DNA from: a virus
Strand: one strand, 5' to 3'
Virus genome (UHGV): UHGV-1813710
DNA length: 13,011 bases
Positions 689 to 11,140 of the stretch are shown here, in pieces (within the stretch, counting starts at the first letter, position 1; each line of letters opens with the position of its first letter). The notes beneath the pieces were generated by a model. It did not search any database. It had not been told where the DNA came from and saw only the letters and a list, made by a program, of their open reading frames with translations. A program made the translations under genes and the position numbers.

Positions 689-871
689 TCAGCCCCCTCG
701 CTTCGCTGGATGAGTGATTTGTTCCACAGACCAATGAGCAAAGCTGTGGTTGATAGGTACCCACTCACCCGCTAAATTAACTGCATAGCGTAACGGGGCT
801 GGCGGTCTAGCATTATCGACCGGTAAGCAACGTAATTGCGGAACCTTGCAAGTTGCTGTTAATATGTTCAT
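689..871 (-). CDS. Small hypothetical phage protein (60 aa)
   Basis: ATG at 871-869 overlaps the TGA of the upstream CII-like ORF (ATGA overlap), and its own stop abuts the start of the downstream gene. The ORF track gives a longer version starting at 925 that would overlap the upstream gene. Confidence 0.4.
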   Translation of the reverse strand: MNILTATCKVPQLRCLPVDNARPPAPLRYAVNLAGEWVPINHSFAHWSVEQITHPAKRGG

Positions 872-1395
872 GCGATTGATTCTCCACACAGACAATTTTT
901 CGCCAAGGCGCCCGGAGCTGCACACTCGCGGGCGTCAACTTTTTCAGGCTCGCAATAGACACGAGCCACAAGCGTAAGAAACTGCATCAAGATGATATGG
1001 ATCTGGTGCGCTACTTCATTTAGCCCATCGAACTCTCGCCGCGTAATGACGTTGTCTGCTTTGTACTCACGATACGCGTTCGACAATTCCCCCAGCTTTG
1101 CCACCAGCTCAGCAAACTTATCGCCGATATCTTCGTTATCAATTTGATCAAGTTCTGGAAGCAATAAGAAAACGCCCCCCGAGATCCGCGCAATAGTTGA
1201 TGCAAAGTCTTCTGTCTGGCTGAATGCTTGCATCTGCAGCGCGTCATTGACGCTCATGTATTGAGCCCCGGCACCGCCACGTTCATAAACAAGGTTTTCA
1301 AGCTTGCAGCGGCTGTAACCTAAAGCGGCTGACATTGCATCCCAGCCGCCGGGATATGCCCTGATCATTGACTGGTAACACTTGCGAATTTCCAC
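868..1395 (-). CDS. CII-like early regulatory protein (phage CII/CP76-type, tentative)
   Basis: 175-aa ORF directly downstream of the cro-like gene on the same strand. GTG start at 1395 with AAGGGG Shine-Dalgarno 6 nt upstream; first in-frame ATG is 27 nt inside. Position and sequence style recall phage 186 CII-type regulators; the family assignment is from memory only. Confidence 0.5.
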   Translation of the reverse strand: MEIRKCYQSMIRAYPGGWDAMSAALGYSRCKLENLVYERGGAGAQYMSVNDALQMQAFSQTEDFASTIARISGGVFLLLPELDQIDNEDIGDKFAELVAKLGELSNAYREYKADNVITRREFDGLNEVAHQIHIILMQFLTLVARVYCEPEKVDARECAAPGALAKNCLCGESIA

Positions 1396-1773: not shown

Positions 1774-2700
1774 GACGAAAAAGTGCGGAAAGATTTTGCC
1801 CAGCGGCTAGCACTGGCCTGTAGAGAAGCGGGGCTTGATGATCATGGCCGTGGCACTGAAATAGCCAAGGCGCTAAAGGTTACGGCCAAGGCTGTCAGCA
1901 AATGGCTCAATGCTGAGGCGTTGCCTCGTCAGCCCAAGATGGAGGCGCTGGCAAGGTTCCTGAAGGTCGATATGATATGGTTGCAGCATGGTAAGCGTGA
2001 CTCAAGATCTGCTGATGAGCAGGACGGGATCATTAAGTACAAGGATTTCGCAGATAGGCTAAACTCTCTCATGGGCGATAAGGGGGTGGACGTGAATCAA
2101 TTAAAAGAAATCTGCGATGTCACATTTGAAGTAGCGCGAAGTTATACACTTGGTGTATCAAAACCACGGGATGAAGCATTAGAGAAAATAGCTAATTTTT
2201 TTCAAGTTTCAATGCCATTTCTCGACTATGGCGTAGTTGATGACTCGCAACCATCTTCCGATACTGAAAAATTACAGCAGTTAGCTGTTTACGCCTCGGC
2301 TGGACGTAGCGGATATATAAATTCAGAGTTCCCAGAGGTCATCCGATCGATTGAAATACCCAAAGAGAGGATCTATGAGCTTTTTGGGAGAAAAAGCCTT
2401 GATGGTATCAGCATCATGAACATCAACGGCGATAGTATGATCCCAACTCTCAACCCTAGAGATCTTCTTTTTATTGACACTAGAATTGATAGTTTTAATG
2501 GCGATGGCGTCTATGTATTTTGTTTTGAAGATGCAATGTTTGTTAAGCGATTACAAAGAGTTAAGGGTAGAAGGTTATCAGTAATTTCAGATAATAATGT
2601 TTACCCTCCATTTACAATTGAAGAAAATGAAATGTTTGAGCTGTACATATATGGAAAGTTGATAAAACAATTACCAATGAAGCTCATTGATTTCGCTTAG
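1765..2700 (+). CDS. CI-type prophage repressor with two tandem HTH (XRE-type) domains and a C-terminal S24 (LexA-like) autopeptidase domain
   Basis: C-terminal region contains GDSM (catalytic Ser) and FVKRL (catalytic Lys) plus an Ala-Gly candidate cleavage site (YASAGRSG). Two separate HTH-like segments precede it (…TEIAKALKVTAKAVSKWLN… and …LKEICDVTFEVARSYTLGVS…). Start ambiguous: ATG 1720 (track) or ATG 1765; 1765 is preferred because 1720 lies among the operator repeats and the putative leftward promoter. Confidence 0.85.
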   Translation: MVQDEKVRKDFAQRLALACREAGLDDHGRGTEIAKALKVTAKAVSKWLNAEALPRQPKMEALARFLKVDMIWLQHGKRDSRSADEQDGIIKYKDFADRLNSLMGDKGVDVNQLKEICDVTFEVARSYTLGVSKPRDEALEKIANFFQVSMPFLDYGVVDDSQPSSDTEKLQQLAVYASAGRSGYINSEFPEVIRSIEIPKERIYELFGRKSLDGISIMNINGDSMIPTLNPRDLLFIDTRIDSFNGDGVYVFCFEDAMFVKRLQRVKGRRLSVISDNNVYPPFTIEENEMFELYIYGKLIKQLPMKLIDFA

Positions 2701-2830: not shown

Positions 2831-2898
2831 TCCATCAACCGCAGTCACTAGCACTATCAGTGGTTGTGGATACTTAAGAGACTTAGGTGGGAGTTCAA

Positions 2899-3159
2899 AT
2901 GACTAGTTATTACACGTGCTCTTTTTGCGGGATACGCGAGCAGGATGCTAAAAGGATTGTTGCCAAGGGTGGCAGAGATGAGCCAGCAATCTGCTCTAAG
3001 TGCATTGTCTCATGTGTAAATGTCATTATTAACGCAGGAACAGTAATGGAAATAGAGAAAAAAGGCGCCAATAAGGGTGAATTAATCCTTGATATGGAAT
3101 TGGCACCTCGATCAGAAAAAATGTCATTTACTCAGACTGAGGTAGCTCAATCGGATTAA
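2899..3159 (+). CDS. Small protein (86 aa) with a ClpX-type C4 zinc-finger (ClpX N-terminal zinc-binding-domain-like) and no ATPase domain
   Basis: Sequence MTSYYTCSFCGIREQDAKRIVAKGGRDEPAICSKCIVSCVNVII has C-x2-C-x19-C-x2-C and parallels the ClpX N-domain (recalled E. coli motif YCSFCGK…RKLIAG…ICDECVDLCNDII). GGGAG Shine-Dalgarno 6 nt upstream of ATG 2899; the track's 2887 start is GTG. Confidence 0.65.
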   Translation: MTSYYTCSFCGIREQDAKRIVAKGGRDEPAICSKCIVSCVNVIINAGTVMEIEKKGANKGELILDMELAPRSEKMSFTQTEVAQSD

Positions 3160-3403
3160 GCGCCATTGACGCCATTGGTAGCTGAATCAATGAGATCGGC
3201 AAGTTGGATAAACTTCTCTCTACCAGTTGACCTTAAGACACTACTGGCATTAGCAGAACAAGCATCACTGGAATATGCCGCTAGCAAGCATATAGCGGTC
3301 TTTAAAGCGCCGAGTTCTTCAATTAAACCTTCTGGCGTTACGTCGTTATCAAGTGACAGTGTGAAATTTGGCATTTTTATCTCTATGTGATTGGTGTACG
3401 ACA

Positions 3404-3440
3404 GGTGGCGACATTGGCCACCACGCTCTTTAAAAATCTG
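3404..3440 (+). terminator. Hairpin with weak T-tract between the convergent genes (possible terminator)
   Basis: GGTGGC (3404-3409), 7-nt loop, GCCACC (3417-3422), followed by ACGCTCTTTAAAAATCT. The T-tract is interrupted, so termination efficiency is uncertain. Confidence 0.3.
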
Positions 3441-3458
3441 GATATCCCTAGTCGATAG

Positions 3459-3971
3459 TTAGAAGATCATTGGAGCGATATCTATTGGCTCATATGCCGA
3501 TTTGTTCATTAGAAAAAGGCTGGCGCAATGAAAGCATTTGCATTGTTCAAAGTAACAAGAGTTATTCGAATTATATCCAACCTCTCCTGTTGGCTGGAGT
3601 ATCGATACTATTTTTTGTGTGAAGCATTTTGGGCAAAGATGCACGGCTATTTGCATTCCGTTAACAGATTCATTCTTAGAATAAACAAACGTTCCAGAAT
3701 CAAGCTGGTTCAGAGCATAACCTTCAGTCTGGCTTTTAAAGTCTTCGAACTCTGCAATTTTTGCTTTGAGCGTTACGGCTTCTTCCTGATAAAAGCGTGC
3801 AAGCTCAATGAGCGACATGCATTCACGCTGCACAGACGTAAGCTTTAAAACCATATCGCTAACAGCAGAATTTATCTCTGCCTGTGTTTTTGCATTTGAA
3901 ATAACTTTCGCCAAAGCAGTCGTTTCTTTAATTGCCGACATTGCAGCTGTGATTTCAACAAACACTTTCAA
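3459..3971 (-). CDS. Hypothetical protein (170 aa): helical/coiled-coil N-terminal half, Cys-rich C-terminal half; AT-rich moron-like gene
   Basis: Protein-like ORF convergent with the flanking rightward genes; the opposite-strand ORFs (3528-3848, 3808-4008) look like antisense artefacts. C-terminal half has a CPKC…C…CKCFHC pattern suggesting metal binding. TTG start at 3971 with no clear Shine-Dalgarno; alternative ATG at 3941. Sequence is visibly more AT-rich than neighbouring phage genes. Confidence 0.5.
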   Translation of the reverse strand: MKVFVEITAAMSAIKETTALAKVISNAKTQAEINSAVSDMVLKLTSVQRECMSLIELARFYQEEAVTLKAKIAEFEDFKSQTEGYALNQLDSGTFVYSKNESVNGMQIAVHLCPKCFTQKIVSILQPTGEVGYNSNNSCYFEQCKCFHCASLFLMNKSAYEPIDIAPMIF

Positions 3972-4269
3972 TACTCATATAGTCGTTGGGGATATTCAGA
4001 CTAACTGAATTCTTGTTGTTGGGGAATAGCAGGAACCACTGCCGCCTGAAGTGGAAAAATAAACAGGCTAAATAAGTTACATGTGAATCATCAGCAGCAG
4101 ACCAGCCGGCGGTGTCTTAACACCGGCAGTACATAATGAATAGCCACTACTCTCCGGGTATTCATGTATGCACGGACAGCTCGGAAAGACGTAGCCGCCT
4201 GATCCACGTTAAGGATCACACAACCGCATGGGTATTTAGATTCAGGGGCGTTTCGAGTACCCAGCCGGT

Positions 4270-4313
4270 TGTGGTGTAGCGGTTACGCGCTGGTTCAAGT
4301 CCAGTCACCACAA
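4270..4313 (+). other. tRNA-like minihelix (acceptor stem, U8-A9, short hairpin and T-arm, but no anticodon arm)
   Basis: TGTGGTG (4270-4276) pairs perfectly with CACCACA (4306-4312). TA follows at 4277-4278, then a GCG-GTTA-CGC hairpin (4279-4288), then T-arm GCTGG-TTCAAGT-CCAGT (4289-4305) with a canonical T-loop sequence, then an A at the discriminator position. Confidence 0.35.
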
Positions 4314-4339
4314 AATATGTTCCATCGCTGTGTAGTCTT

Positions 4340-4406
4340 GGCGGTTGCAGGGTTTCAACCTTTAGAGGATTGATGACTGTTATTTGTCCTGTAACCGCCC
4401 TTTTTC
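4340..4406 (+). terminator. Long hairpin followed by T-tract upstream of the early operon (candidate terminator or attenuator)
   Basis: GGCGGTTGCAGG (4340-4351) pairs with CCTGTAACCGCC (4388-4399): 12 bp including one G-T pair, 36-nt loop, followed by CTTTTTC (4400-4406). Confidence 0.35.
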
Positions 4407-4493
4407 ACCACACAGAGAGAAGTGCTTGTTGAGTGCTGCCCTGTGTGTGGAGAACGTATCGCGATGTGCATCGCACTTTCTGAGGGTCAAACA

Positions 4494-4868
4494 ATGAGTA
4501 AAGAAAATCGCATGACAGTAGTGCCCGAGTTCTTGGGCGAACTGGATGCAGGGATCTTTGAAAATAAGATTGCTGCAGCGTTAAACAGTACCGCTTTAGG
4601 CGTTCTAAACAACGGCGGTAAAGGTCAGGTTGTTGTTACGTTTGATATTGATCGACTGAGCAATTCGGTTGAAGAAAAACGCGTTGGTATTAAGCATAAG
4701 TTGAAGTTCGTTACACCTACCCCACGGGGCAAAGTGTCAGAAGAAGACACCACGGAAACGCCTATGTACGTAGGGAAAGGTGGCAAGTTAACAGTATTGC
4801 AAGAAGATCAAGGGCAACTGTTTTCAATCGATGGCGCCCCGGATGGAAAATTGCGCCAAACGCAATAA
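4494..4868 (+). CDS. Hypothetical phage early protein (124 aa)
   Basis: ATG at 4494 with GAGGG Shine-Dalgarno 7-11 nt upstream. The track's longer form starts at 4422, but that extension is encoded by a palindromic leader and is Cys-rich. Confidence 0.6.
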   Translation: MSKENRMTVVPEFLGELDAGIFENKIAAALNSTALGVLNNGGKGQVVVTFDIDRLSNSVEEKRVGIKHKLKFVTPTPRGKVSEEDTTETPMYVGKGGKLTVLQEDQGQLFSIDGAPDGKLRQTQ

Positions 4869-6754: not shown

Positions 6755-7499
6755 ATTATCAACTGAGCGTTTAGAAAAATTCGTCAACGATATTAAAACT
6801 GATGGGATGTGCGACATAACTGATTATCAAGTTGCGTTGGCGTTACGTCAGTTACTGGCATACGAGCAAGCAGTACCGGTATTACCTAAACAGCCTGAGA
6901 CTCAGTTCGATGAAATCGCGCTTGATACTGCAAGAGAGATTATGCGTGATGTAAACCAGCGCCATGAATTGATTGGCGGTGAGTGTCAGTTGCTTGCGCG
7001 CACTCAGTGTCGAATTAATGACGTACTGTGTAACGTCGCAGCACCAGCACAACCTGTAATACCAGAACAAGCTAAGCCTGTGGCATATACAGACAATAGA
7101 AACTTAAAAAGTCTACAGAAAGGATGTAATACGGCATTGCTCTGGCTTAAGCATAACGCCGAAGTTGGTGATATTCCTCTATATACCGAAGTGCCGACAC
7201 AACCTGTAAGCGAGCCTTACAAGCTACCAGTCGGATATTTTTCTTATGGCTCTGAGTGTGGTTTTGATTGGCACAATACAGAGAAAGAAGCGATTGAAGC
7301 TGCCGAGGCTGTAATTGACAACTATCGCGGTGATGCGTGCGACGGCTGGTCTGAGGAAACAGACAGTGTCTGCTGGGGTGTCATTTTGCAACAGGCAACA
7401 AAGGTCGATGAGCGCCCACGTACTGATGATGATAAATGCGATCCGGCTATTGATACGGTCTGTGATTACGCGCTACTACCGGCGCAGGAGAGCGAATAA
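6747..7499 (+). CDS. Hypothetical phage protein (250 aa), Cys-containing C-terminal region
   Basis: Start overlaps the upstream gene by 8 nt, with a GGGGG Shine-Dalgarno. Ends in …AQESE, whose codons form the Shine-Dalgarno for the next gene. Confidence 0.6.
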   Translation: MSELSTERLEKFVNDIKTDGMCDITDYQVALALRQLLAYEQAVPVLPKQPETQFDEIALDTAREIMRDVNQRHELIGGECQLLARTQCRINDVLCNVAAPAQPVIPEQAKPVAYTDNRNLKSLQKGCNTALLWLKHNAEVGDIPLYTEVPTQPVSEPYKLPVGYFSYGSECGFDWHNTEKEAIEAAEAVIDNYRGDACDGWSEETDSVCWGVILQQATKVDERPRTDDDKCDPAIDTVCDYALLPAQESE

Positions 7500-8263
7500 T
7501 GCGCCCTCACTTTCACGGAACCCCGATTTGGGGGAATGCTGGCGATGTTTTGCGTGTTGCTGTTAGCGGAGCTGGTGCATTCGTTTCTTACGTTAGACCA
7601 GACCAGATTGAGCGCTGTTTTAAATATGCGGATAGTGTAGCTATCGATAACGGCGCGTTTTCAGCATGGAAAAGCGGCAAGAAATTGGATTGGAATAAAT
7701 TCTATGAATTCCTGTACAGGCATTATCACCGCTCAAAGCTTGCATTTTTTTGTATTCCAGACGTTGTGGAAGGTGGTGAAAGCGATAACGACGCAATGAT
7801 TAAAGCCGTTCCGCACATATTCAAAGAAAAAGCAGCTCCGGTTTGGCATTTACACGAATCTATCGAGCGCTTAATTCGTTTGTGCGAAGAGTGGCCGCGC
7901 GTGTGTTTTGGCTCGTCTGGTCAGTACGCGCGAACATTAACAAAGCTATGGCATGAGCGCATGAAAGAAGCTTTCACGGAGATTTATATCAAGCGCCAAC
8001 TGACAACGAAAATACACGGACTACGCATGCTTGATGGTCGCATTTTGGGTAACTACCCGCTACACAGCGCAGATAGCACAAACCTAGCATGCAACGTTCC
8101 AAAATTTAACATGAAGTATCCAGAGCTAACCCGAGCTGTATTAGATAAGGGGTATGGTCAAGACATGGTTCAACTACACCGTTGCGCGATTCTAAAAAAC
8201 TCAATTGAGTCAGTAACACCGCCGAGCATCGCGGCGTGGGTAGCTGCACAGGAGAGCGAATAA
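7499..8263 (+). CDS. Hypothetical phage protein (254 aa); weak, unverified resemblance to tRNA-guanine transglycosylase (TGT)/DpdA-type proteins
   Basis: TAATG overlap with the upstream gene. Segments HGTPIWG, VAIDNGAFSAW and GLRMLDG loosely parallel the TGT segments PVGTYG, LTDSGGFQV and GIDMFDCV (recollection, not a computed alignment). Confidence 0.6.
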   Translation: MRPHFHGTPIWGNAGDVLRVAVSGAGAFVSYVRPDQIERCFKYADSVAIDNGAFSAWKSGKKLDWNKFYEFLYRHYHRSKLAFFCIPDVVEGGESDNDAMIKAVPHIFKEKAAPVWHLHESIERLIRLCEEWPRVCFGSSGQYARTLTKLWHERMKEAFTEIYIKRQLTTKIHGLRMLDGRILGNYPLHSADSTNLACNVPKFNMKYPELTRAVLDKGYGQDMVQLHRCAILKNSIESVTPPSIAAWVAAQESE

Positions 8264-9563: not shown

Positions 9564-9782
9564 ATGGCGAAAGAAGCTAAATTGATGCGCGCGAGCGCGT
9601 GGGGCAAGCGTGAGTTCGAGGTGGGTTCTATTCCTGATAATAGAACTATTAGGCGCTGGATAGAAAATGGCCGTTTGCGTGGCCGGATTGTTGATGGAAC
9701 CATTTTGGTTTATTCATCTGAACGCTGGGGTATTGAGTCTGTTGTATCCCACCACGTACATAATTTAATTAGTGAATCATGA
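9564..9782 (+). CDS. xis: Excisionase (lambda Xis-like)
   Basis: Lies immediately upstream of int with an ATGA overlap. Segment RTIRRWIENGRLRGRIVDGTILVYSSE parallels lambda Xis ETVRRWVRECRIFPPPVKDGREYLFHES. GGAG 9 nt upstream of ATG 9564; the track's 9519 start lacks a Shine-Dalgarno. Confidence 0.75.
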   Translation: MAKEAKLMRASAWGKREFEVGSIPDNRTIRRWIENGRLRGRIVDGTILVYSSERWGIESVVSHHVHNLISES

Positions 9783-10960
9783 TGGCAGCTCGACCACGCA
9801 AGCGTGAAAACCGGCACCTTCCCGATCTGCTGTATTTCGATAAAGTTGCCGGCGTTTATCGCTTTACCCTAATCACGGGAAAGAGAAAATCATTAGGCTC
9901 TGACCGTGCTTTAGCAATCGCTATTGCGCGTGAATATAACAATAGAATGCGACCGGATATAGTTGTATCAGTTGACTCGCTTATTAGTGAATCGGGCGGC
10001 TTGAAGGGGGAATCCCTGCCCTTCTCCAGTCATGTTGATCATATTCTCGCTCGTGCTATCACGGACGAGAAACCAAGCCCTGATACAAAGGCTGACTGGA
10101 TGAATGATGCAAAACGAGTGAAAGAATTCTTCATTGACATTCACTGCTGCGATATTGAACTAGAGCACGTCAATGCGTTCATTCAGCATTATCATGCTGA
10201 AGCATCAGCAAACGTACAAAACCGCAAAGTTAGTTTTCTAAAGAAATTATTTAGTTATGCAGTAGACGAATCGTTAATGTTCGATAATCCAGCAACTAGA
10301 AAGAAAATGCGGAGAATTGAGGGGAAAGTTCGCCAACGCTTATCTTTCGACAATCTGATGGCTATACGAAACGCCGCGGATCGATGGCTGCGAACTGCGA
10401 TAGATCTAGCTCTACAGACAACGCACGCCCGGCTTGAAGTTTCCCGAATTCGCTATTCAATCAAAGAGCCCAAAAATGGCGTGTGTGGCTGTGTGTGGTT
10501 CGACGCTCCAGAGAGTGGGATTTATGGCGTTATGTATATACACAGGCAGAAAGTGCAGCACAAAGAAGCATCACACGTCGCAATACCAATCGGGCCTGAA
10601 CTTAAAAGAATTATTGATGATAGCCGCGACAATGCTGCTAGCCCATACATTGTTCATCGTTTACCAAAACGCAATAATAAGCCAAGCAAAGAGGTTTCAC
10701 ATCCTACACAAGTAGCGCCAGACTACTTGAGCCGGGCATTCTCAACACTTCGAGATGAGCTCGGGATTTGCTCACATCTTGAAATGGATGAACGTCCGAC
10801 ATTCCATGAAATCCGAGCGCTTGCTGCACACCTATTTGATACGCAAGGCATTGACCCACAGGGCCGCATGGCTCACAGCGACGCTAAGTCGACTAAGATA
10901 TACACGCAAAATCATATCGATTGGGTCATGGTGCCGCACGGCGAGATCAAGACGGGATGA
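9779..10960 (+). CDS. int: Tyrosine site-specific integrase, lambda Int family
   Basis: N-terminus RENRHLPDLLYF…GKRKSLGSDRALAIA parallels lambda Int HERRDLPPNLYI…GKEFGLGRDRRIAIT. C-terminus has PTFHEIRALAAHLF (H-x-x-R box) and …STKIYTQNH (catalytic Tyr). Adjacent to xis and to the tRNA-derived att core. Confidence 0.95.
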   Translation: MMAARPRKRENRHLPDLLYFDKVAGVYRFTLITGKRKSLGSDRALAIAIAREYNNRMRPDIVVSVDSLISESGGLKGESLPFSSHVDHILARAITDEKPSPDTKADWMNDAKRVKEFFIDIHCCDIELEHVNAFIQHYHAEASANVQNRKVSFLKKLFSYAVDESLMFDNPATRKKMRRIEGKVRQRLSFDNLMAIRNAADRWLRTAIDLALQTTHARLEVSRIRYSIKEPKNGVCGCVWFDAPESGIYGVMYIHRQKVQHKEASHVAIPIGPELKRIIDDSRDNAASPYIVHRLPKRNNKPSKEVSHPTQVAPDYLSRAFSTLRDELGICSHLEMDERPTFHEIRALAAHLFDTQGIDPQGRMAHSDAKSTKIYTQNHIDWVMVPHGEIKTG

Positions 10961-11037: not shown

Positions 11038-11094
11038 GTCGACAACCTAGAGAAACCAGTGCTGGCGCGGGTTTCAGCGTGTTGAATACGCTAA

Positions 11095-11140
11095 CATGGG
11101 GTGTCGGGGGTCGGAGGTTCAAATCCTCTCGTGCCGACCA
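11095..11140 (+). other. Partial tRNA: 3' about 45 nt of a tRNA-Pro-like gene (anticodon loop to CCA), i.e. the att core repeat at the prophage boundary
   Basis: T-arm GGAGG-TTCAAAT-CCTCT (11113-11129), acceptor 3' strand CGTGCCG, discriminator A and CCA (11138-11140). No complementary 5' acceptor strand (CGGCACG) upstream, so the tRNA is not intact. GGG sits at the inferred anticodon position and the string matches my recollection of enterobacterial tRNA-Pro. Confidence 0.65.

Follow-up and report, generated by a model that had tools for sequence, protein, structure and literature searches.

Conserved RNA hairpins in the early-left leader of a lambdoid prophage and a putative leader-derived small RNA

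We analyzed the early-left leader of a lambdoid prophage in the virus genome UHGV-1813710. The analyzed stretch comprised 13,011 nt (here referred to as the window) and represents one end of the prophage. Two inverted repeats had been noticed in an earlier note between positions 4340 and 4493: a long hairpin followed by a T-tract, here named H1, and a short palindrome-like repeat, here named H3. Both are located in a non-coding stretch of 520 nt (3972-4493) in front of a YfdP-family gene (phrog_204; 4494-4868, plus strand) with its ATG at 4494-4496 and the Shine-Dalgarno sequence GAGGG at 4482-4486.

Composition of the locus and structure of the hairpins

The immunity region of the window contained a CII-like gene (868-1395, minus strand) and an S24 repressor gene (cI; 1720-2700), the product of which shared 36% identity with HK022 cI and carried an extra HTH domain. 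Just after the cI terminator (2718-2739 followed by T9, plus strand) we found an HK022-like pL promoter with operators (ATGTACTTCTGGTACTT; -35 TTGATT; -10 CATTAT) at 2784-2836 on the plus strand. The pL region aligned closely with HK022 pL, and its operator words were shared with the OR region of the window. Given this position of pL, H1 lies on the early-left transcript, approximately 1.5 kb from the promoter.

Three small genes are located between pL and the leader: a ClpX-type zinc-finger gene (2887-3159), a phrog_7249 gene (3156-3374, minus strand) and a phrog_1244 gene (3459-3971, minus strand). To call the gene at 4494 the first early gene was therefore imprecise, since the zinc-finger gene is the first one after pL, and the YfdP-family gene is the first of the YfdP/YfdQ/YfdR block. 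It opens a plus-strand operon in which genes for DUF2303/YfdQ, a YfdR HD phosphatase, a DpdA-like protein, an exonuclease and the integrase (9779-10960) follow in this order, with a tRNA-Ser (11057-11140) as attachment site beyond the integrase. The closest characterised phage was Hafnia phage yong2, whose counterpart of the protein encoded at 4494 was 89% identical. The leader of this early-left operon (YfdP/YfdQ/YfdR ... xis/int type) is long, highly structured and untranslated, and the region 4000-4500 was unusually structured on the plus strand (z = -3.57).

H1 spans positions 4340-4399 of the plus strand. Its arms of 12 nt each, GGCGGTTGCAGG (4340-4351) and CCTGTAACCGCC (4388-4399), are separated by 36 nt and are 92% complementary, with 11 Watson-Crick pairs and one G.T (G.U in RNA). 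The stem is G+C-rich and starts with GGCGG/CCGCC. The RNA fold of 4340-4399 reached -25.7 kcal/mol compared to -12.7 +/- 2.5 kcal/mol for dinucleotide shuffles (z = -5.15; none of 200 shuffles was as good), and the complementary strand folded more weakly (-19.5 kcal/mol). The 36-nt loop (4352-4387) is itself partly paired and represents a diverged copy of an apical motif conserved in relatives (UCUUCAACC...GGnGAAGAUAAUGUUCUG). Directly 3' of the hairpin lies a C-U5-C tract (4400-4406; U-tract 4401-4405), which is found on one strand only, and no A-run is present 5' of H1. The stem, the loop and the CTTTTTC tract were thus as the earlier note had described them, and the T-run ends 88 nt before the ATG, close to the 90 nt given there. 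Positions 4400-4406 are the predicted termination point and 3' end of a leader RNA.

Searching Rfam gave no match at E <= 1 in 3972-4493, and in 10 related loci none for this region besides tRNA-like genes; a sub-threshold match to sar RNA (33.9 bits, gathering threshold 43) in locus L002 (582-650) lies outside the leader. An antiterminator pairing which competes with the H1 stem was looked for and not found; the CA-rich and GU-rich segments downstream of H1 compete among themselves only. These segments form a second structure, here named H2 (CACCACACAG... / ...CUGUGUGUGGAG; 4405-4453, plus strand), with a fold of -21.6 kcal/mol (z -4.14) and an apex shorter than in relatives. According to the consensus fold, the base of H2 in the read-through RNA is closed by pairing of the U-tract to GGAGAA (4450-4455). 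By analogy, H2 is a candidate substrate of RNase III.

H3 (4461-4474, plus strand) had been described as a perfect 14-bp palindrome about 20 nt before the start codon. An inverted repeat is indeed present and ends 19 nt before the ATG. Its perfection was not confirmed: GCGATG-TG-CATCGC consists of two 6-bp arms around a non-palindromic TG, and the sequence GCGATGTGCATCGC differs from its reverse complement GCGATGCACATCGC. As RNA it forms a stem of 5 bp (4461-4465 / 4470-4474) with a GUGC loop and a fold of -5.5 kcal/mol (z = -1.2; 22 of 200 shuffles were as good). Approximately three inverted repeats of this 6/2/6 kind are expected by chance in 13 kb (13011 x 4^-6). Taken alone H3 is within chance, and its reality rests on the comparative data.

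Conservation of the leader structures in related loci

For comparison we used 80 viral contigs and 80 species-level genome loci encoding relatives of the protein at 4494, together with yong2, Shigella phage SfIV and an E. coli prophage (loci carry L numbers). The same architecture recurred on the gene strand in lambdoid prophages across Enterobacterales. H1, preceded by the linker, led into C(C)-U5-7. The next element was H2, made up of a 5' strand rich in CA (ACACA...), an apex that varied and a GU-rich 3' strand ending with UGUGUGGAG(A)AA. Then H3 as a small G+C hairpin, a spacer of 8-10 nt, GAGG and the ATG were found. An unsupervised RNAalifold consensus of eight diverse leaders recovered H1, H2 including the pairing of the U-tract with GGAGAA, and H3.

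Counts for H1 were made on an alignment of 23 representative sequences, in which the T-run following the hairpin was invariant. The stem positions 6-8 and 11 changed on both sides (UA/CG/UG; AU/CG/UA/GC; CG/AU/GC/GU; GC/CG). In total, 48 compensatory cells were observed compared to 23.6 +/- 4.5 in shuffles, and the covariation score of 0.355 exceeded those of the shuffles (0.17) and of a slid 3' partner (0.04-0.19). G.U pairs occurred in the gene-sense strand only. A hairpin followed by at least T5 was located at -340 to -80 in 109 of 144 distinct upstream regions, but in 11 of 144 reverse-complement controls.

For H3, 22 sequences were counted, three rows of which were out of register. Even so, 88.8% of the cells were paired compared to 29-58% when slid, and five of the six pairs had changed on both sides, which none of 500 shuffles reached. 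Hairpins resembling H3 were present at -30 to -10 in 120 of 144 distinct upstream regions and in 16 of 144 controls. Pairing census and covariation therefore identify H1 and H3 as plus-strand RNA structures rather than DNA palindromes; with H2 included, all three are sense-strand RNA structures that are conserved and keep a fixed position.

The earlier note had offered two functions for the short repeat, an operator or an RNA hairpin controlling translation. The first was contradicted by the compensatory substitutions and the sense-strand G.U pairs. Furthermore, prophages of the same pL and operator type, such as yong2 and L001 on the one hand and the E. coli locus L085 on the other, carried different H3 sequences. 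The operator words of the window were located at 1703-1717 and 2713-2825 and not at 4461-4474; no 8-mer was common to the OR region (1600-1730) and 4340-4500, whereas matches were found at 2713-2825. Since H3 differs between prophages of the same immunity and the operator words lie elsewhere, the operator was ruled out. H3 is, as judged by sequence comparison, a small conserved RNA hairpin 8-10 nt ahead of the Shine-Dalgarno sequence, which fits the second option.

Two forms of H1 could be distinguished. A plain form, e.g. UGCCCAUC-ACAUC-GGUGGGCA-CC-U6, was present in many E. coli contigs. In the elaborate form the lower stem co-varied, the upper stem read UCUUCA(A)CC / GG(n)UGAAGA, and the bulge AUAAUGUUCUG on the 3' side was conserved; the structure of this form was set by hand and counted, as RNAalifold on the MAFFT alignment gave none with the stems out of register. 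The window, L001 and L008 carried diverged elaborate hairpins. A covariance model of the elaborate form, here named R1, found the window hairpin at 4340-4407 with 48.9 bits (E 5e-10). Among the 80 species-level genome loci 36 were matched at more than 40 bits, all on the gene strand and ending approximately 90-350 nt before the gene match, and no further copies were found elsewhere in these loci. The positive genera comprised Serratia, Yersinia, Rahnella, Proteus, Providencia, Xenorhabdus, Sodalis, Kosakonia and others. A minus-strand terminator-like hairpin with T6 at 3056-3107 of the window, inside the zinc-finger gene and just downstream of the gene at 3156-3374, gave a partial match to R1 (15.7 bits).

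By scanning viral contigs for a pattern and then applying R1, we found 30 further copies of H1 (29 above 50 bits, one with 35.5 bits). In 17 of these no YfdP-like gene was found downstream within the DNA examined, which for one of them amounted to 792 nt only. They are located in the leaders of operons opening with other open reading frames (ORFs), which by their sequence look RdgC-like, like an HD phosphatase or otherwise. Elaborate H1 hairpins with a U-tract before such first genes were found in L220, L237, L198, L240, L207, L204, L182, L205, L214, L193, L235, L196, L234, L224 and L209. Several of these leaders had a tRNA-like domain after the hairpin; elsewhere H1 preceded the tRNA-like element in L001 and followed it in the window. 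Given its presence in front of non-YfdP first genes, H1 is a shuffled leader module travelling independently of the downstream gene.

The region 5' of H1 was composed of further elements. The linker, here named A (..CCAUCGCUGUGUAGUCUU; 4313-4339, plus strand), often reads UUGCUGUGUGUAGUCUUU directly 5' of H1 in relatives. It is preceded by a truncated tRNA-like domain (4267-4313, plus strand) with an acceptor-like helix (4269-4276 / 4306-4313) and a T arm (4289-4305). Relative to L001, 37 nt comprising the D and anticodon arms are deleted between GTAGC repeats, and neither ARAGORN nor Rfam called a complete cloverleaf in the window. A full tRNA-like gene occupied the same place in Hafnia-type relatives, namely L001 (2353-2434), L002-L008 (2361-2434) and yong2 (L083, ~3361-3434). 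It was called Gly-CCC or Asn by ARAGORN and reached 48-51 bits with the Rfam tRNA model, and its anticodon loop was aberrant (CGCCCGA, no U33). Different tRNA-like fragments were present in other leaders (L063, L220). Such leader elements could be RNase P processing signals or decoys.

Upstream of and overlapping the tRNA-like domain, we found a hairpin here named X (CACAACCG... / ...CGGUUGUG; 4219-4273, plus strand; -27.2 kcal/mol, z -4.59) with an apex which is hypervariable in relatives. Hairpins of this type share a conserved base, CACAAC..AGAGCA / UGCUCU..GUUGUG, and have wholly different apices; one to three are present per leader, as in L002 (2287-2366), L008 (2265-2366) and L085 (2450-2522). 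The 3' strand resembles boxA. In the window X overlaps the acceptor-like helix by approximately 5 nt, and since its 3' strand overlaps the next helix (GUUGUGGUG / CACCACAAC), the two helices are mutually exclusive. In Shigella phage SfIV (L084, NC_022749; 2439-3351) the coding sequence SfIVp35 and a 5' extension of SfIVp34 cover X hairpins, H1, H2 and H3; both are probably not genes.

Several other parts of these loci were noted. In L023, L050, L071 and L092, about 100 nt are enclosed by a long-range helix GGUGUCUUCGGGAGGGG ... CCCCGCCCGAAGAUACC located approximately 300-470 nt before the gene, and these loci additionally had a conserved pL-proximal segment (CAACAGCGAAnAGGCAGGACGCC..GAAGUAGCCGCC); Rfam gave no match in L050, the one of the four searched. 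Within the leader of the window, nucleotide matches to other sequences were confined to positions 3954-4075 (plus strand). At approximately 80% identity the segment was found in 1139 of 5426 E. coli genomes, in SfIV-like phages and in Klebsiella phages, and was usually annotated as hypothetical protein. It contains two direct repeats GTTGTTGGGGA (3982-3992 and 4015-4025, 33 bp apart) and a GCCTG...CAGGC hairpin and may be a regulator-binding or promoter region for divergent genes; a second, weak promoter-like site is possible at 3955-3983. The hairpins themselves remained unmatched when the leader was compared by BLASTN with E. coli genomes (3950-4520) and with phage collections. Within the early operon, the DpdA or queuine tRNA-ribosyltransferase-like gene (7499-8263, plus strand; phrog_887, E 5e-82) suggests, judged by its homology, 7-deazaguanine DNA modification.

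Relationship to sRNA-17 of E. coli K1

One relative of this leader has been described experimentally. The small RNA sRNA-17 of E. coli K1 strain RS218 is encoded in an mEp460-like prophage, has a length of 193 nt with ends mapped by rapid amplification of cDNA ends (RACE), and was seen on Northern blots (Front Microbiol 2020, PMC7719688). Replacement of sRNA-17 by a chloramphenicol resistance (CmR) cassette increased expression of yfdP (log2 6.6, ~95-fold) and of yfdR, and trans effects on host genes and virulence were reported (PMC7719688). Neither a terminator nor the leader context or an RNA family was described for it there (PMC7719688).

We placed sRNA-17 by means of the published primers on the identical E. 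coli locus L085, where it corresponds to positions 2514-2707, with 194 nt instead of 193 between the primer ends. It is transcribed in yfdP-sense, since the primers for 3' RACE have the orientation of this strand and those for 5' RACE, like the Northern probe, are antisense to it; the alignment file of the publication gives the reverse complement. The 5' end CGUUGUGGUGAAUGCG lies in the 3' strand of the upstream CACAAC/GUUGUG hairpin. The 3' end, GGCGGUACCAG[19 nt]CUGGUACCGC-UCUUUU (as DNA ...GGCGGTACCAG[loop]CTGGTACCGC-TCTTTT), is the H1 homologue with its U-tract and is located 139 nt before yfdP. Further downstream come ACAAAACAGAGAAGAGCA as part of H2, then an H3 hairpin and finally yfdP. 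The mapped end provides direct evidence for RNA 3' end formation at the H1 homologue in vivo in E. coli.

The window leader shared several features with this locus. It lies on the sense strand between cI/pL and a yfdP-family gene, and a closing helix corresponding to GUUGUGGUG / CACCACAAC at the 5' end of sRNA-17 (4269-4276 / 4306-4313) is followed by a linker and by a hairpin GGCGG...CCGC with U-tract (4340-4405; L085 2514-2707), then by ACA..AGAG as 5' strand of H2 and an H3 hairpin. Between both ends, the two differ: the body is a truncated tRNA-like domain in the window but about 110 nt of unrelated sequence in E. coli, and no nucleotide similarity was detectable over it outside the stem base by BLASTN of 3950-4520 against E. 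coli genomes. Furthermore, the E. coli hairpin has a plain loop instead of the diverged elaborate apical motif. Based on the shared arrangement, the window counterpart of sRNA-17 would most likely span ~4267-4405, i.e. approximately 140 nt consisting of the truncated tRNA-like domain, the linker and H1.

We therefore consider it fairly probable that H1 with its U-tract acts as an intrinsic, strand-specific terminator or attenuator in the early-left leader and yields a leader sRNA of ~140 nt. The suggestion of the earlier note that early transcription has to pass a termination or attenuation point here gains support from the stem covariation, the near-invariant U-tract and the RACE-mapped 3' end of the homologue. 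The context, with a lambdoid immunity region (HK022-like cI and pL) upstream and the integrase and tRNA-Ser attachment site downstream, is also in favor of a terminator. Transcripts stopping at 4401-4405 would give rise to the sRNA (~4267-4405), and the fraction terminated at H1 would limit entry into the YfdP-to-int operon and may keep it quiet in the lysogen, while the upstream boxA site described below may help read-through. In read-through RNA, the U-tract and the CA-rich segment would pair with CUGUGUGUGGAGAA to form the long H2 duplex, by analogy with the lambda N leader a putative RNase III site. H3 would then be close to the newly formed 5' end, with 8 nt between it and the Shine-Dalgarno sequence, and may serve as a stabiliser or insulator of the translation start.

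Several observations weigh against this explanation. H1 combines a stable G+C-rich stem with a U-tract immediately 3' on one strand only, but its 36-nt structured loop (typical terminator loops have 3-8 nt) and a tract of five U one C off the stem are atypical for a strong intrinsic terminator, and the built-in terminator scan with its loop limit of 3-8 nt skipped it; many E. coli relatives have a 5-nt loop. Yong2 and L002 lack H1 altogether, and thus it is dispensable in some lineages. The published deletion of sRNA-17 keeps the H1 hairpin and carries the CmR cassette, yet yfdP was increased ~95-fold. This result represents an unclean test, and H1 could be leaky. Because the terminator hairpin is kept and a cassette is left behind, the rise of yfdP and yfdR is probably a cis effect, and for the same reasons we rejected it as proof of termination. 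No antitermination protein was identified among the ORFs scanned. Finally, termination does not need the apical motif with the GAAGAUAAUGUUCUG bulge, and many E. coli leaders have a 5-nt loop in its place, so that the elaborate form probably does something beyond termination.

Antitermination and alternative explanations

The earlier note had compared the hairpin region with sites of lambdoid antitermination. A canonical boxA CGCTCTTTA was found on the plus strand at 3424-3432, between the two minus-strand genes and thus on the early transcript, though outside 4340-4493. The site (3404-3447) consists of a hairpin (3404-3409 / 3417-3422), the boxA (CGCUCUUUA; CGCTCTTTAAAAATCTGGATATCC) and a conserved AAAAUCUGGAUAUCC, and boxA is conserved in relatives. 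The hairpin-boxA module (C/U)GCUCUUUAACAAUCUGGAUAU was present in gene-sense in eight other loci (L035, L098, L107, L111, L129, L138, L139 and L150); in L035 it lies ~95 nt after the pL start of that phage, the classical position of nutL. By its composition the site on the pL transcript resembles antitermination sites of the nutL or rrn kind, and the conserved upstream boxA makes an antitermination context plausible. As to a boxB, a hairpin precedes boxA, and the conserved UCUGGAUAUCC after it formed no convincing stem. No N-like arginine-rich protein was found after pL in Pfam or PHROGs among the ORFs scanned, the first gene encoding the ClpX-type zinc finger. The comparison with lambdoid antitermination sites thus gains support from boxA and none from an N-like gene or, as follows, from put.

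Compared to known systems, the leader combines features of several. The lambda pL leader consists of nutL, an RNase III hairpin and the start of N, with the tL terminators in the path of early transcription. The window likewise has an upstream boxA on the early-left transcript, a long structured untranslated leader, a long duplex just upstream of the ribosome-binding site of the first gene and a putative terminator in the path of early transcription. It differs from lambda by the lack of an N homologue and a recognisable boxB, by the leader position of this terminator, which precedes the first gene of the block, and by a boxA which is preceded and not followed by its hairpin. The latter is the order of the rrn leader antiterminator (boxB-boxA-boxC), with which the window shares a sense-strand hairpin and, after it, boxA (C/U)GCUCUUUAACAA, as well as GU-rich UGUGUGG segments further downstream that resemble boxC. 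Unlike in rrn leaders, boxA lies 900 nt upstream of the H1/H3 region. Complexes of the rrn type are known to counter Rho-dependent rather than intrinsic terminators, and boxA with host Nus factors counters Rho; this would be useful for an RNA untranslated over more than 1 kb. Leader sRNAs produced by premature termination, such as attenuator-derived ones and DicF from a prophage operon, are small stable RNAs from a 5' untranslated part with an intrinsic-terminator end as well. For the leader of the window, we found neither a sensing mechanism nor an alternative antiterminator that would pair with the H1 stem.

Four other explanations were weighed. It is rather unlikely that H1 is mainly the body of a trans-acting sRNA or protein-binding RNA made in the lysogen, with bulge and apical motif as a binding surface (e.g. 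for Hfq, ProQ or an mRNA target) and termination as a secondary role. Sequence conservation of the motif UCUUCAACC...GAAGAUAAUGUUCUG extends from Serratia to Proteus and Providencia, the module occurs in leaders with unrelated first genes, and sRNA-17 is detectable in the lysogen with reported trans effects (PMC7719688). On the other hand, many E. coli leaders carry a plain hairpin only at this position, the apical part of the window has diverged, a search in cis for a complement of the conserved bulge or of its window variant gave no consistent site, and the reported trans effects stem from a cassette-bearing mutant. Such a role is compatible with termination rather than exclusive of it. We consider it improbable that H3 is a boxB-like or other protein-binding RNA which, together with the GU-rich UGUGUGGAG as boxC-like element, recruits a regulator of antitermination or translation. 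H3 is conserved with 5-6 bp at a fixed distance from the GU-rich element and the Shine-Dalgarno sequence, and a boxA-like GCUCUU is found in the 3' strands of H2 and X in relatives. Its loops, however, are unconserved (GUGC, ACAU, GAUC, GGCA, UGCA, GCGA...) and thus unlike those of boxB, it is located downstream of the terminator to be suppressed, it is absent from the Proteus, Providencia and Morganella versions, and no candidate protein was found.

Given the HK022-like repressor and pL, the multi-hairpin early leader and the absence of an evident N-type protein, H1 with or without H2 and H3 might also represent a cis-acting antiterminator RNA of the HK022 put type, which binds the transcribing polymerase, makes it pass over terminators further downstream and needs no phage protein. 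The upper stem and bulge of H1 (UUCA..UGAAG-AUAAUG) weakly resemble stem II of put (GUUCA-GGA-UGAAC-GGCAAUG). Nevertheless this is decidedly improbable. With filters off, R1 gave no match at HK022 putL (L082 ~740-815, minus strand) or putR (~1960-2030, plus strand), and put identity of H1 was rejected on these grounds. Put sites lie directly after their promoter and lack a following U-tract, whereas H1 lies ~1.5 kb from pL, has an invariant U-tract and corresponds to a mapped 3' end; no put-like sequence was present after the window pL, and the elaborate part is missing in many relatives. That the two features act as DNA, with the palindrome serving as a repressor operator or the long inverted repeat as a cruciform or recombination site, is scarcely credible. 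Both are inverted repeats near a regulatory region. However, the palindrome is imperfect, both helices keep their pairing by G.T, which is a mismatch on the other strand, the T-run is one-sided, operators of the cI type are found elsewhere (1703-1717, 2784-2830), and H3 differs among prophages of the same immunity type.

The preferred explanation, a leader terminator with a leader-derived sRNA, is of a known kind and has one relative described by experiment; for the modular leader family around it there is no previous description. In a widespread group of enterobacterial prophages, H1 would form a checkpoint that separates the immunity region from the genes for recombination and integration. 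The comparison ties the isolated report of a virulence-associated prophage sRNA to a leader architecture conserved from Serratia and Yersinia to Proteus, and structured RNA is present where SfIV-like phages and E. coli genomes carry annotations of hypothetical proteins.

As a tentative extension, the 300-600-nt early-left leaders of many Enterobacterales temperate phages might be built from shared RNA modules: the hairpin-boxA site, CACAAC/GUUGUG hairpins with hypervariable tips, tRNA-like domains and H1. The elaborate H1, with its lower stem, the UCUUCAACC/GGnGAAGA upper stem, the conserved AUAAUGUUCUG bulge and the U-tract, might then be an undescribed RNA class read by a host or phage factor for termination versus read-through, which also yields a host-acting sRNA expressed in the lysogen. 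The conserved apical motif, which termination alone does not explain, is the part most likely to hold something new. If the elaborate hairpin is a regulated terminator or factor-binding RNA, it would constitute a new cis-regulatory RNA class of temperate phages.

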